From the IMG/VR virus record IMGVR_UViG_3300035101_000063: DNA of 64,000 nucleotides, one strand, 5' to 3'. Each line of letters begins with the position of its first letter. Position 1 is the stretch's first letter. Both the position numbers and the translations under genes were made by a program. Below the pieces are notes generated by a model. That model was given only the letters and a program-made list of their open reading frames with translations. It was not told the DNA's origin and made no database searches. Shown piece after piece: positions 2,644 through 63,943 of the stretch. This stretch comes from a virus.

Positions 2644-2659
2644 GCGAACTCGAGTTCGC
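2644..2659. repeat. 16-bp perfect palindrome GCGAACTCGAGTTCGC (copy 1)
   Basis: Exact match. It sits 18 nt upstream of the ATG at 2625, immediately 5' of the SD. Confidence 0.95.
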
Positions 2660-2674
2660 CAAAAATTAGTTCTA

Positions 2675-3415
2675 TCAATCGGTCATTATCCCAACTGGAT
2701 GTTGCATCAACCGCATCTTCTCTTCAAGTCGCATTTCCATAGCTTCAGCATTTGCATACATCGTTTCACCATCCATTGTATATGTACCTGTTGCAGATGG
2801 CTTATCAGAATATTTCATTCTAATCGTAGCCAAAGTTTTCATTGCTCTCATTAAAGCATATTCCTTAAATAGATGCCACTCATATGTACTTAAATAATTA
2901 TAATCAAAACATCTTGAAAGATAAACAACTTTTATCTTCCTAGTATTACTATTCTCTGGAGATATTACCAATATACGCCTAGACTTATCCCATTGCCAAT
3001 CTCGGTCAGCTGATACAATTTTTTTAGCATCATCCCGATACATCATATATTGAACTAATCCAGAATATCCCCCTCTCCCTTCATAAACATATTGAAATGG
3101 ATTTATCTCTACATCTGCCCACCCAAAAATATCTTTCAAAGAAGAATCATAAGCATCGAAATAAACATCAACTACACTATCAACATCTGGACCAAGGACA
3201 GAAGCAGGATATTCCCTAGCACTAGTAAGCGTCAAATCAACGGAACGTACCCTACCAACCCACATTAACCAATATTCCTGTGCCTTACGAATAGCACTCT
3301 CCAAATGCTTATCCGTGAGCTCAACACCTATGACATCACAACCTAGTTCATCAAGAATATATTCTTTCACAACATCAGTTGCTCTATTATCACTCCATTC
3401 TACTCCACAATTCAT
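2675..3415 (-). CDS. hypothetical protein (virion module)
   Basis: Tiled ORF located downstream of the capsid genes. Confidence 0.5.
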   Translation of the reverse strand: MNCGVEWSDNRATDVVKEYILDELGCDVIGVELTDKHLESAIRKAQEYWLMWVGRVRSVDLTLTSAREYPASVLGPDVDSVVDVYFDAYDSSLKDIFGWADVEINPFQYVYEGRGGYSGLVQYMMYRDDAKKIVSADRDWQWDKSRRILVISPENSNTRKIKVVYLSRCFDYNYLSTYEWHLFKEYALMRAMKTLATIRMKYSDKPSATGTYTMDGETMYANAEAMEMRLEEKMRLMQHPVGIMTD

Positions 3416-3420
3416 AATGA

Positions 3421-4125
3421 TTATTTCTTCCCAATTGACCGCTTAATAGGTGATGTCAATATCTTCTCTGCAGAATCTTGTATTTTACCAACAACACTAT
3501 AAATTTCAGGTTCCTTTATATTTACTCTCTTTAATGCCTTTACTGTAGCATCTCCTATTTCAGATAGCACACCATTAAGTTGGTCTTCATTCATCTGAAC
3601 AATTGATATAATAGATTTTTTTATATCTTCCGGAAGTGAATCAACATCCACCGATGATTCCGGTTTTGCTAATGGTTCCATATCACCATTAGATTTCTTC
3701 CCTTTTTCTTTGTCTTTTTTATCATCATCTTCTTCTTCATCTTCATCATCTTTATTACCATTATCTTTATTACCATTATCTTTATTTACATAATTATCCA
3801 TTTTATCAGCTTCATTTATTGGTACTTCCTCACCAAGCTCAGCTAATCTTTTAGCTACACGATCATCAGGTGAACTCAATAAACTATATCCAACAACTTC
3901 CAATTGTTCTGGCTCTAAAACAGAAAATAAATATAAATCTCGATCAAAAAAACCATTTTCTCTAATAGATAAACCCATAGGTGTAACAGCCACTACCTCT
4001 CCCACAGCAACATGAACACCCATTTTATTTCTAACCTCTACTGTCTCACCAATCCCTATTAAACCTGCATCAATTGTATTATCAAGCCTACTCTCAAATA
4101 ATGTTTTTTTCATGGAATCCTCCAT
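3421..4125 (-). CDS. acidic low-complexity protein with NKDNG repeats and a D/E tract
   Basis: Tiled ORF with a compositionally biased centre. Confidence 0.45.
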   Translation of the reverse strand: MEDSMKKTLFESRLDNTIDAGLIGIGETVEVRNKMGVHVAVGEVVAVTPMGLSIRENGFFDRDLYLFSVLEPEQLEVVGYSLLSSPDDRVAKRLAELGEEVPINEADKMDNYVNKDNGNKDNGNKDDEDEEEDDDKKDKEKGKKSNGDMEPLAKPESSVDVDSLPEDIKKSIISIVQMNEDQLNGVLSEIGDATVKALKRVNIKEPEIYSVVGKIQDSAEKILTSPIKRSIGKK

Positions 4126-4659
4126 TTAATACAATTTCAACCCTTTATGTTTTCTATCTACATGAGTAATCATTCTCTTCTCACTTTTAAGAAACTTTCC
4201 ACAAGAAAGACATCTAAAACCACCTTTTACTGATACATAATCACCTACTTCATTATTAATATCATCTGAATTATTAAACTCTTTATTATCTTCTTTGTCA
4301 CAATTATCTTCATCATCACCATCTATTTTATCATTTTCTTCTATATTAGAATCAACAATACTAAAATTATCAATCGAATCTGATTCTAAAGAAATATTCT
4401 CAATTATATCCAACTTTTTATCTAAATCCTCATCCAAACATTCATCTTTTATTTCATCTTTTACTTCATCTTTTACTTCAATAAGATATCCATCTCTAAC
4501 CCAACAATTAAGATTAAAATCGCCAGTATCAACAATCTCACCTGGTTCAAAAACAAAATCTCTTATACCACTAGCTTTAGAACCATTATTTATAATTCTA
4601 GTTATACCACCACAAAACTGTTGTCGCTTCTGACCATTTTTCATCTTATATTTTGGCAT
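4126..4659 (-). CDS. acidic repeat protein with a C-terminal C2H2-type zinc finger
   Basis: KDEVKDEIKDE repeats. The C-terminus reads CLSCGKF...HVDRKH (C-x2-C-x12-H-x4-H). An AGGAG SD precedes the ATG at 4659. Confidence 0.5.
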   Translation of the reverse strand: MPKYKMKNGQKRQQFCGGITRIINNGSKASGIRDFVFEPGEIVDTGDFNLNCWVRDGYLIEVKDEVKDEIKDECLDEDLDKKLDIIENISLESDSIDNFSIVDSNIEENDKIDGDDEDNCDKEDNKEFNNSDDINNEVGDYVSVKGGFRCLSCGKFLKSEKRMITHVDRKHKGLKLY

Positions 4660-4671
4660 TTTTAATCTCCT

Positions 4672-4708
4672 AAAAAAAGGGTCGAGCCGATATCGACCCG
4701 ACCCTTAA
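4672..4708 (-). terminator. intrinsic terminator downstream of the major capsid gene
   Basis: Minus strand reads AAGGGTCG-ggtcgatatcggct-CGACCCTT followed by TTTTTTT. The AGGAG SD and ATG of the next gene follow immediately. Confidence 0.7.
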
Positions 4709-4776
4709 CAATTGGTCACAATACTATACTACCACTGTTTCAATCCACACCCCATTGAATGGAGCAACACATCCCG

Positions 4777-62388: not shown

Positions 62389-62634
62389 TCAATGTCTCCA
62401 ACCAAAATGAATATCTTTCTTAGAAAACGGCTTAGGCAATTCTCTCTCGTTTTTTTTATAATACTCAATTACATCATGTCTTACATTCTTCAATTCCAAT
62501 AATGCTTCTTCTTCTGTTTCTCCAACGGCACTACATGCCGCTTCACCAAAATCTGGAAGGTATGCTATAAAATATGGTTCGTTTTCTTCATCAACCCGAT
62601 AAATTACTACTGGATAAAATACTTCTTTTGACAT
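62389..62634 (-). CDS. HicB-like (UPF0150) antitoxin-fold protein
   Basis: YPVVIYRVDEENEPYFIAYLPDFGEAACSAVGETEEEALLELKN matches the HicB N-domain pattern. Confidence 0.45.
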   Translation of the reverse strand: MSKEVFYPVVIYRVDEENEPYFIAYLPDFGEAACSAVGETEEEALLELKNVRHDVIEYYKKNERELPKPFSKKDIHFGWRH

Positions 62635-62874
62635 TTACTTCATTCCTGTTATTCCCCTTCTTTTCATCTCATCACAAATGGCTTGCTTCATCCTTTTCAG
62701 AGCAACCTCTATTGCTCTATCATTTACACAAATACACCCTAGATTACTCTTGTATGGACATCTGTTTTTATATCCATCAGTGTAATCACAAGTCTCAAAC
62801 TTTCCTTTAGCTTCACATACAAAAACAAGCCCATCATCCAACAACATAATATCTACTTTTGATACTTTACTCAT
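62635..62874 (-). CDS. Cys-rich hypothetical protein
   Basis: Abuts the HicB-like gene. Not recognisably HicA. Confidence 0.35.
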   Translation of the reverse strand: MSKVSKVDIMLLDDGLVFVCEAKGKFETCDYTDGYKNRCPYKSNLGCICVNDRAIEVALKRMKQAICDEMKRRGITGMK

Positions 62875-63214
62875 TTATATTCTCTGTATAATAAATCGGC
62901 GTTTTACCAGTTACATCAATACCAGTTACCATAATATCCCAACTAGCCAAAACTTCTCGTATTGTTTTATAATGATATCCAAAACCGCCCACTTTAGAAG
63001 CATCCTCGAACCACCACCCATTGTTTCCAAAACTAATTTTACCATTTTTAAAAGGTTGAAAAAATTTACGTTCCATACCAATAATATCAAATTTTGTTCT
63101 TATTTTTTTTGTGCTATTTAAAGAATCAATAACATCAAATAATGGGTCATGTTGTTCCATGTCAATTTGACGAGAAATAGTACTAGACCCTCTATTATAT
63201 GATGCATATCCCAT
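62867..63214 (-). CDS. hypothetical protein
   Basis: ATG at 63214 with a GGAGGG SD. The ORF-track TTG at 63235 is the TTG of a TTGACA hexamer. Confidence 0.4.
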   Translation of the reverse strand: MGYASYNRGSSTISRQIDMEQHDPLFDVIDSLNSTKKIRTKFDIIGMERKFFQPFKNGKISFGNNGWWFEDASKVGGFGYHYKTIREVLASWDIMVTGIDVTGKTPIYYTENINE

Positions 63215-63432
63215 CTCAACCCTCCATATTGTCAACTTTTGATATATTACTTATTTTATCTGTAAAATTCTTTTTGTATTTCTAAACAATCACACAAGTT
63301 AACCAACCTATTCAAACATTCCTCTGCTTTTTTAACAGCATCTTTATTTACCTCTATCGATAACTTTAAATATGAAATTGCCTTTTTCAATTCCAGTCCT
63401 GTAAATTCTATATCTATACAATTACTCATATC

Positions 63433-63822
63433 TTACTCCATATAATCAGTTACATCAACCGCCCATGGTCCATGAGACCAACATACAACAATAGCACTTC
63501 CATCTTCTTTATAACCCAATACAGACCCATCTGTACTAATCTGTATAATACAAGTCAATCCGTCCGATTGTGCTGCCTCCATCGGACTCTGATACTCTTC
63601 CCCAATACTATATCCTTCTCCTTTATCATTACCCCATCTCCACGCTTCTATAAAATTGTCTGTCTTCTTGTCTTCATATAATTCTGCTATATCACCGTTC
63701 TCATAGGCAATATACTCTTGACCTTCAGAAAAAAAATACAAAAATTCCTCTCCATCAACCCCAACATTAATACGATCTTCCCCATATTTATCAATCAATC
63801 TTTGAAAATTTTTACTTCTCAT
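63433..63822 (-). CDS. hypothetical protein
   Basis: First gene after a promoter plus palindrome at the high-coordinate end of the window. Confidence 0.4.
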   Translation of the reverse strand: MRSKNFQRLIDKYGEDRINVGVDGEEFLYFFSEGQEYIAYENGDIAELYEDKKTDNFIEAWRWGNDKGEGYSIGEEYQSPMEAAQSDGLTCIIQISTDGSVLGYKEDGSAIVVCWSHGPWAVDVTDYME

Positions 63823-63867
63823 TTTTTCTCTCCATTTTTCTCAACATCTTGTTGAGTATCTACTTTG

Positions 63868-63896
63868 ATTTTAAAACCTTAAAAATGGTTTGTCAA
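63868..63896 (-). promoter_or_regulatory. sigmaA-type promoter: A-tract, TTGACA, 17-nt spacer, TAAAAT
   Basis: Minus strand reads AAAAAAGTTGACAAACC. The palindrome lies about 30 nt upstream. Confidence 0.55.
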
Positions 63897-63927
63897 CTTT
63901 TTTAAGTTTTTTTCTAAAGTTTTTTCT

Positions 63928-63943
63928 GCGAACTCGAGTTCGC
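63928..63943. repeat. 16-bp palindrome (copy 12)
   Basis: Exact match. It lies about 30 nt upstream of the TTGACA at 63896. Confidence 0.95.

Follow-up and report, generated by a model that had tools for sequence, protein, structure and literature searches.

The window analysed here, a 64,000-nucleotide stretch of the IMG/VR virus record IMGVR_UViG_3300035101_000063, stems from an uncultured, large, T4-related phage and carries twelve copies of the 16-bp palindrome GCGAACTCGAGTTCGC, placed at even intervals. The element recurs, as RCGAAC-N4-GTTCGY, in nearly all relatives that were fetched for comparison, with invariant arms and a lineage-specific centre, and its core, CGAAC-N4-GTTCG, is identical to the published LexA/DinR box of Gram-positive bacteria. 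The symmetry of the palindrome makes it quite probable that a protein binds the element on duplex DNA, as a symmetric dimer whose subunits each read an 8-bp half-site. A narrower reading, which we regard as evenly balanced, is that the 16-mer would be the operator of a dimeric LexA-type winged-helix protein, either host LexA or a phage homologue, with a silencing or roadblock role. The LexA-box identity, the even spacing and the clade-wide conservation are new beyond an earlier note on this DNA, which had described the palindrome from the letters of the window.

An evenly spaced palindrome conserved across a phage clade

Searched with up to three mismatches, the window yielded exactly twelve copies of the 16-mer in 64 kb, against 0.01 expected from 100 shuffles, none of which reached twelve. 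These are the same copies that the earlier note had considered too numerous for chance. Seven are exact and five are variants, four of them with one mismatch in the outermost base and the one at 25854 with two (Table 1). The positions given in the note hold for all five variants and for six of the exact copies, the seventh starting at 51571 and not at 51570, and the guanine-plus-cytosine (GC) content, which it had put at ~30%, was measured as 34%. Seven copies are intergenic, three fall in the last codons of the upstream open reading frame (ORF), the copy at 34223 lies early in a gene and that at 9731 in mid-ORF. The last two are in frame within coding sequence, and the upstream ORFs that end at 21794, 40981 and 56973 read through the palindrome (...ANSSS..., ...RTRVR...), both as the note had reported. 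It had further placed eight copies 12-26 nucleotides (nt) before a start codon, which is precisely the range that we measured; since all genes are on the minus strand, its description of the element as lying upstream of ribosome-binding sites is true when read on that strand.

The intervals between the twelve window copies have a mean of 5571 bp and a standard deviation of 1341 bp, giving a coefficient of variation (CV) of 0.24. Such even spacing has a P of 1e-5 against uniform placement and of 2.5e-5 against placement at random gene junctions. When the map was extended with flanking DNA from near-identical contigs, the successive intervals in the coding direction were 7831, 6211, 6955, 5402, 5866, 4724, 6758, 5509, 2860, 4060, 7310, 4753, 7087, 9245 and 2113 bp, and the evenness persisted (CV 0.32, P ~1.5e-5). 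Site density is equal in the early-like small-ORF region and in the structural region of the window, indicating that the palindrome is not a class-specific promoter element.

Relatives were fetched through the portal protein, which gave 59 IMG/VR loci with 39-94% identity in the best segment and a GC content of 0.34-0.68; the clade reaches down to a portal identity of about 35-45%. The motif count in related phages that the earlier note had suggested came to 121 distinct instances in this uncultured clade, or ~1 per 4.5-5.8 kb. The centres seen are TCGA; TCAA, TTGA and TTAA; CTGG, CCAG and CCGG; TCCA and TGGA; and ACGT and ACGA, with a central pyrimidine-purine step in 101 of 109 instances. 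An excess of TCAA over TTGA on one strand (27 vs 8) was discounted as evidence, since a single inherited orthologous copy inflates the count. About 40 of the 121 instances lie inside long open frames and 81 at gene junctions, and 63 of these 81 have a Shine-Dalgarno (SD) sequence and a start codon no further than 120 nt away, the commonest distance being 10-22 nt. A motif search in the flanks of the 109 instances returned nothing beyond a weak SD-like G signal 5-6 nt downstream. As the upstream gene usually ends within the site or a few nucleotides before it, the palindrome looks like an element squeezed into a minimal intergenic gap, not a translation-coupled one. The closeness to an SD sequence, which the earlier note had taken as a regulatory clue, is thus real but not specific, for tight gene packing explains it equally well and no flank is conserved. 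A metagenome scan for the 16-mer gave mostly chance matches among the matches listed.

The best view of how the element is conserved comes from the copy within the 284-amino-acid (aa) gene that directly follows the portal gene (Table 1), where in most loci the palindrome sits ~340-390 nt past the portal stop codon. The orthologous position was located by alignment of the 284-aa protein, independently of the motif, and it reads xxN-CGA-ACN-NNN-GTT-CGN (peptide RT[R/Q/G]VR) in ~46 loci. In the twelve relatives sampled, CGA makes up 6-23% of the arginine codons and GTT 9-43% of the valine codons, and both are nonetheless kept at the site. This retention of minority codons at synonymous sites means that the nucleotide sequence of the intragenic copy is itself under selection. 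The site is absent in two loci, L034 and L082, where the peptide differs, and in L028 one arm has decayed. All remaining orthologous variants are symmetric double substitutions, confined to pairs 1/16 (G..C, A..T or C..G), 7/10 (T..A, C..G or A..T) and 4/13, where A..T has become C..G in L041-43 and L064 to give CCGCAC-ACGT-GTGCGG through the synonymous changes CGA to CGC and GTT to GTG. Among the 16 distinct orthologous 16-mers, 92% of cells are complementary, compared to 80% in shuffles, and the covariation score is 0.359 vs 0.095 (0 of 500 shuffles reach it); controls slid along the alignment collapse. The position of the copy at 2644 likewise appears conserved in relatives, to judge from site offsets only.

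Two-fold symmetry of the element

The members of pair 7/10 are complementary in every one of the 16 distinct orthologues (15 Watson-Crick, one G-T) and in 103 of all 109 instances counted. With only 2 nt between them, they cannot pair in a hairpin, and two-fold symmetry of the duplex explains their complementarity directly. The outer pair acts as an independent purine in each half-site, with 14 A..C combinations seen and ~18 expected under independence, and the arms are sequence-invariant, with no free covariation. Furthermore, one and the same genome can have both TCAA and TTGA centres, each the reverse complement of the other, on its coding strand. That the symmetry is perfect at all 16 positions throughout a deep clade, even at a central pair of no use to a hairpin, argues for a DNA operator read by a dimeric protein, and of the roles offered in the earlier note that of an operator for a dimeric regulator gains by this evidence.

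The palindrome also differs from the transcription signals that the window contains. Strong canonical intrinsic terminators are present on the coding strand at 4706-4677, directly after the major capsid gene, and at 14627-14596, before the terminase module, so that the phage relies on host-type termination at these module ends. With ordinary intrinsic terminators in use elsewhere, the palindrome is not this phage's terminator, and at no copy is it followed by the T-run on the coding strand that marks an intrinsic (Rho-independent) terminator. The earlier note had excluded a U-tract on either strand; this is correct for the coding strand but not for the non-coding strand at 28714, the only copy with a T-run. 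Scans of the window for sigma-70 promoters and terminators showed no enrichment over shuffles and no consistent relation to the palindromes, and the T4 late promoter TATAAATA was not enriched on the coding strand (7 vs 5).

The LexA-type box and its candidate binders

The SOS box of Bacillus subtilis and Staphylococcus aureus is CGAACN4GTTCG (PMC9578287 Table 1; PMC9700832; PMC3091678), and Firmicutes and Actinobacteria share GAAC-N4-GTTC as a conserved, monophyletic motif, of which Chloroflexi and Cyanobacteria have variants (PMC4951493). The CGAAC/GTTCG arms with their 4-bp gap are fitted by all twelve window copies, 25854 with a single arm mismatch, and by the 121 instances of the clade, each monomer putatively reading R-C-G-A-A-C-(T/C/A)-Y. 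As half-site core and spacing equal those of the LexA/DinR SOS box, a LexA-type protein would be the most likely binder, and a conserved host factor would explain why the arms are identical in phages of 34% and 68% GC. Host LexA itself can be named only tentatively, and a LexA homologue encoded by the phage is unlikely. The GC contents of the clade (34-68%) would suit hosts among the Firmicutes, Chloroflexi and Actinobacteria. One relative, L084 (the same phage as L065-67), was placed in a Dehalococcoidales metagenome-assembled genome (MAG), which is binning evidence only; a closer relative was binned with an 'archaeon' MAG, and this bin must be spurious since the phage carries a sigma factor and a transfer-messenger RNA (tmRNA).

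From these features we infer protein binding, a LexA-type binder and a block to transcription, which may act together in the following way. A symmetric dimer would occupy sites every ~5-6 kb on a unidirectionally transcribed genome, mostly in minimal intergenic gaps, and the occupied sites would serve throughout the genome as operators or as roadblocks to elongation, comparable to the stoperators of cluster A mycobacteriophages. With even spacing, any transcript would be stopped within ~5-6 kb while the repressor is present, so that transcription would be kept segmented or silenced until the repressor is removed. Relief may come from RecA-stimulated self-cleavage of the repressor during SOS induction, the phage encoding a RecA-like protein of its own, or from titration by replicated genomes. 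In its fullest form the proposal, which is possible but speculative, is that an apparently lytic clade of large T4-like phages of Gram-positive-type hosts (Firmicutes, Chloroflexi, Actinobacteria) has recruited host LexA as a genome-wide roadblock or timer acting through ~30-40 boxes, one every 5-6 kb, some of them at ancestral positions even within a head-morphogenesis gene, and gated by LexA cleavage (perhaps via the phage RecA) or by titration. An architectural role and a roadblock role are equally compatible with the spacing.

Several observations weigh against a LexA-type binder or against its role as a roadblock. The centre is TCGA in all twelve window copies and T-Y-R-A, C-Y-R-G or ACGT in relatives, nearly fixed in each genome, whereas genuine LexA regulons have variable R-N-R-Y centres, A/T-rich in the canonical consensus CGAACATATGTTCG taken from the boxes of SPbeta (PMC8270828); among the centres of the clade ACGT alone fits RYRY. 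A near-fixed centre implies a binder that reads more than LexA's ten core positions, and it fits a dedicated phage protein at least equally. The flanking bases are G/C, unlike the A/T of SPbeta or actinobacterial boxes. Among the window's minus-strand ORFs of at least 58 aa, searched against Pfam as concatenated polyproteins, there was no LexA, S24, LexA_DNA_bind or ParB, phmmer with Escherichia coli LexA found no match among the window proteins, and no LexA or RecA ORF lay within 1.5 kb of the exact 16-mer in 123 unrelated loci. Promoter-like sites occur near only three of the twelve copies: 14484 lies 34 nt after TTGCAG-N16-TATAAT, and 25854 and 63928 precede TTGACA, as the earlier note had seen, by 8 and 30 nt. 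In relatives the spacing is less even (CV 0.64), with some site pairs just 171-900 bp apart. Moreover, the phage looks lytic, having T4-like structural genes and no integrase that could be found in the window. Finally, in the high-GC sub-lineages L041-43 and L064 the arms have switched to CGCAC-N4-GTGCG, departing from the GAAC core.

In these sub-lineages GCGCAC-ACGT-GTGCGC stands in place of GCGAAC-ACGT-GTTCGC (further positions are L041 4633 and L042 5424), and L064 has both classes side by side (1565, 7012 and 10111 vs 3708 and 14139), a pattern that suggests two specificities or a specificity switch under way. The CGCAC variant would resemble a Fibrobacter-type LexA box of the form TGCNC-N4-GTGCA. 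Relatives without the site were tested for the LexA motif types of Gamma- and Alphaproteobacteria, Verrucomicrobia and Cyanobacteria, none of which was significant. An extracytoplasmic function (ECF)-type -35 reading of GAACT was rejected by reasoning, since it would place the transcription start level with the start codons or past them.

The same variation bears on a second candidate. The palindrome may be the operator or architectural site of a dedicated dimeric phage protein unrelated to LexA (of the XRE helix-turn-helix (HTH) type, ParB/KorB-like or nucleoid-organising) that co-evolves with its sites as a global regulator or chromosome organiser, the match to the LexA box being coincidental; we hold this to be possible, though not probable. 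Centre and flanks that are near-fixed per genome and differ by lineage, together with the CGCAC/GTGCG switch and the coexistence of both classes in L064, are the usual signature of a co-evolving pair of protein and site. The even spacing suits an architectural role, two XRE HTH proteins encoded in the window are candidates, and element-encoded binders of dispersed operators are well known, for example from the stoperators of L5 (PMC9283540). Against this stands the match itself: by a rough estimate, the probability that a 5-bp half-site and its spacing agree by chance with those of the best-known host repressor relevant to phages is ~1e-4 per motif, or ~1e-2 over many known motifs. To keep the arms invariant over GC contents of 34-68% and portal identities to ~35%, a phage protein would have to be unusually stable. 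The window yielded no conserved candidate, ParB-like or other, and an XRE HTH gene could be traced through the clade to one relative only (74% identity, for one of the two genes).

A DNA-processing signal is improbable. The palindrome would then be recognized by a nicking or cleaving enzyme, a topoisomerase, a recombination or replication-initiation factor, or a terminase with several pac-like sites, and its spacing would serve replication, recombination or packaging. The even spacing agrees with such a role, as do the perfect two-fold symmetry, known from the sites of homodimeric nucleases, the prevalent pyrimidine-purine central step, the copy immediately upstream of the gene that precedes the large terminase gene (TerL), and the RecA-like, DnaB-like and PD-(D/E)XK-like proteins of the phage. 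On the other side, the sites could not be linked to any nuclease, recombinase or topoisomerase, the preference for gene junctions is typical of regulatory sites, the spacing in relatives is irregular down to the close pairs noted above, and the exact LexA-box match is left unexplained.

Least probable of all is an RNA stem-loop (6-bp stem, 4-nt loop) 5' of the ribosome-binding site that would stabilise the mRNA, mark it for processing or bind a translational repressor, roles that the earlier note had also offered: the frequent SD and start codon after junction copies, the 4/13 change that keeps pairing (A-U to C-G) and the good fold of copy 9731 in its context (z = -3.3) are in its favour, but the isolated hairpin is weak at -6.7 kcal/mol, z is ~ -1 in three of four native contexts and the hairpin is missing from the minimum-energy fold at 40981, pair 7/10 covaries although a 2-nt loop would result, the arms are invariant instead of freely covarying, outer A..C mismatches are as frequent as chance predicts, the best-conserved copy lies mid-gene, about one third of the instances are inside long open frames, two window copies precede promoters and not an SD sequence, and no copy has an Rfam match. 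The palindrome thus lacks the free covariation and the stable fold of a structured RNA element, whose loop need not be self-complementary.

Related site arrays and the phage genome

Several temperate phages use LexA boxes. GIL01 employs host LexA, one of the sites (dinBox1) lying downstream of its promoter P1, and has a truncated LexA homologue of its own with the role of an activator (PMC9578287, PMC4551915, PMC6182141, PMC8270828, PMC9700832); SPbeta has ~10 degenerate SOS boxes (PMC8270828) and the jumbo prophage pBtic235 a single LexA operator (PMC9700832). The palindrome shares with the LexA SOS box, or 'Cheo box', an identical CGAAC half-site and 4-bp spacing and could be read by a dimer. 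It differs in its fixed TCGA centre in place of R-N-R-Y, in its G/C flanks, and in that some copies are intragenic and long conserved. Moreover, whereas the known LexA-using phages have one to a few, often degenerate boxes at temperate-phage promoters, here twelve near-perfect copies are spread evenly over 64 kb of an apparently lytic phage.

The layout is closer to that of the stoperators of cluster A mycobacteriophages, which block transcription elongation when bound by repressor (PMC9283540). As in L5, Bxb1 and TipsytheTRex, many copies of one short site occur genome-wide, mostly in short intergenic gaps. Stoperators, however, are asymmetric sites of 13-14 bp that keep one orientation to transcription and bind a monomeric phage immunity repressor, whereas the present site is a perfect palindrome; in addition, this phage is not obviously temperate, no repressor gene was found in the window, and the sites are ~2-3 times sparser. 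The 12 KorB OB sites of plasmid RK2, the C1 operators of P1 and the conserved inverted repeats of phiC31 follow a common pattern, in which about a dozen sites of 13-17 bp, mostly palindromic, are distributed over a replicon of 40-100 kb and read by one element-encoded protein (the ParB-family KorB, C1 and the phiC31 repressor, respectively). The dispersed array is similar here, but no gene for such a binder was found in the window and the sequences are unrelated. On sequence grounds, the copies are best filed as putative LexA-box-type operators arrayed genome-wide like stoperators, in an uncultured T4-like clade.

A scan of IMG/VR for the canonical CGAACATATGTTCG identified unrelated low-GC phage contigs with dense arrays of perfect CGAAC-RNRY-GTTCG boxes (L234, L231, L253, L255, L217, L220, L229, L277), so that arrays of LexA-type boxes in phages are not unique to this clade. 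In L234 (1-11456) 14 boxes lie in 11.4 kb, most of them a few nucleotides after an intrinsic terminator, and in L231 (900-7000) they lie just before a terminator on the strand examined. These boxes adjoin GCCCGGGC repeats, GCGCCCGGGCG-type repeats and the 18-bp palindrome TTGTTAATAAATTAACAA, and the whole looks like a repeated composite intergenic control module. These contigs have no tblastx match to the window; they share with it repeated, intergenic CGAAC/GTTCG arms, but their arrays are far denser and their R-N-R-Y centres variable. A further array was noticed at 4500-6200 of L098 (metagenome contig Ga0315284_10011721, GC 24%), where seven repeat units follow each other every ~170-380 nt. 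Each reads ...aaacaattaaat-GCGAAC-NNNN-GTTCGC-caaaatgaatcaaaaatacaag..., and only the 4-nt centre varies (ACCA, TCAT, TATA, AATA, TCGA). The stem equals that of the phage palindrome, the centre is hypervariable, and the organism is unrelated and AT-rich; no tRNA was found there.

The window represents 64 kb of a genome of at least ~173 kb, as a near-identical gene was found on a contig of 172,915 bp. Its strand asymmetry is extreme: nearly every long ORF lies on the minus strand, C is very scarce in the coding strand, and GC skew lies between -0.29 and -0.53 in every 4-kb bin; the skew has the same negative sign in relatives at every GC content. Structural and packaging genes include those for a T4-type portal, a prohead protease, a gp23-type major capsid protein, a gp13-like adaptor and a large terminase, and metabolic genes those for an SNF2 helicase, ThyX, thymidylate kinase, deoxycytidylate (dCMP) deaminase, S-adenosylmethionine decarboxylase and a CCA-adding enzyme. 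Since megablast of 12 kb of the window against cultured phages gave no match and the portal proteins of the nearest cultured phages are <30% identical, the phage has no close cultured or annotated relative. In several members of the clade (L035 at 5904-8096, L046, L069, L074, L077 and L071, one relative being 94% identical) the portal match spans ~2.0-2.4 kb and not 1.68 kb, which suggests that the portal gene is interrupted there by an insertion (intron, intein or homing element).

Near-identical contigs (L205 1-874, L212 4336-5682) add genes that lie immediately upstream of window position 64000: those for an RNA ligase, for a DUF5131 protein, for a protein whose N-terminus is DnaB-like and for a RecA-like protein (PF00154), the last of which matters if LexA sites are what the palindromes are. 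A PD-(D/E)XK-like protein is also encoded by the phage. Rfam and tRNA scans of the window found the tmRNA and tRNA-Pro only (Table 1), and a promoter-like TTGACA-N16-TAAAAT is present at 18707-18680, upstream of the tmRNA. Two further proteins were noticed. One, of 884 aa (30672-33326, minus strand), has a weak Vault_3 repeat besides the shoulder domain of the major vault protein (PF11978, 3.6e-24), which is unusual for a phage, and gave no PHROG match. The other is a DUF6745 protein of 410 aa (52214-53446, minus strand) whose N-terminal half contains a long run of degenerate peptide repeats (...QIWDQIRNQIVEQVGEQV...).

Table 1 Palindrome copies and other features of the 64-kb window
Feature	Position	Strand	Remarks
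Palindrome, exact	2644..2659	.	Intergenic between gp13-like neck/adaptor gene (2675-3415) and ORF 1744-2625; 18 nt to ATG
Palindrome, exact	9731..9746	.	In frame (LRTRVRE) within 284-aa ORF 9218-10072, the gene following portal
Palindrome, 1 outer mismatch	14484..14499	.	97 nt downstream of intrinsic terminator 14627-14596; follows promoter-like TTGCAG-N16-TATAAT; 22 nt before ATG of ORF 13811-14461, the gene preceding TerL
Palindrome, exact	21794..21809	.	Overlaps final codons of small ORF 21783-21947; 15 nt to ATG of ORF 21401-21778, upstream of SNF2 helicase gene
Palindrome, 2 mismatches (one in arm), most degenerate	25854..25869	.	Intergenic; followed by TTGACA; DUF3268 zinc-finger gene start 70 nt on
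Palindrome, 1 outer mismatch	28714..28729	.	Intergenic; 8 nt past stop codon, 26 nt to ATG
Palindrome, exact	34223..34238	.	Codons 14-19 (LANSSS) of ORF 33882-34277 (GTG start with AGGAGG 7 nt upstream); stop codon of upstream gene overlaps first base of palindrome
Palindrome, 1 outer mismatch	40981..40996	.	Last codons of ORF 40976-41293; then TAA-AGGAGG-N9-ATG of ORF 40625-40960; 20 nt to ATG
Palindrome, exact	45705..45720	.	Intergenic; 3 nt past stop codon, 12 nt to ATG with SD
Palindrome, exact	51571..51586	.	Intergenic; 8 nt past stop codon, 13 nt to ATG
Palindrome, 1 outer mismatch	56973..56988	.	3' part of small ORF 56943-57110 (...KRTRVRK...); 22 nt to ATG of ORF 56660-56950
Palindrome, exact	63928..63943	.	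Intergenic; followed by TTGACA-N17-TAAAAT; start of ORF 63433-63822 105 nt on
Conserved 284-aa gene directly after portal, function not assigned	9218..10072	-	Hosts intragenic copy 9731
tRNA-Pro(TGG)	17230-17305	-	
tmRNA	18004-18354	-	109 bits; tag peptide VRHNDSQVWAEAA
S-adenosylmethionine decarboxylase-like protein	18770-19084	-	
Two adjacent XRE-type HTH genes	23225..23729	-	Pfam; with the sigma factor, the sole Pfam-flagged DNA-binding candidates in the window
Lar-like restriction-alleviation zinc-finger protein, two similar small ORFs side by side	48325-48973	-	Coordinates approximate (Pfam match on concatenated query)
Sigma-70-family factor (regions 3 and 4)	61382-62017	-	

Whichever protein binds, the motif marks an uncultured phage clade sharply, is easy to search for and may help to constrain the host lineage, and the intragenic copy is a clean natural example of a putative DNA-binding site held by selection on synonymous codon positions. 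If a phage protein binds, it would be a new global regulator or organiser, whose 16-bp specificity is stable to an unusual degree. If LexA binds, this would be the first known T4-type clade to wire its whole genome, and not one lysogeny promoter, to the host SOS repressor; we know of no earlier case of a large T4-type phage clade that has done so with host LexA. Evenly spaced roadblocks, if that is what these sites are, would be a simple physical way to time or silence a unidirectional genome of at least 170 kb.

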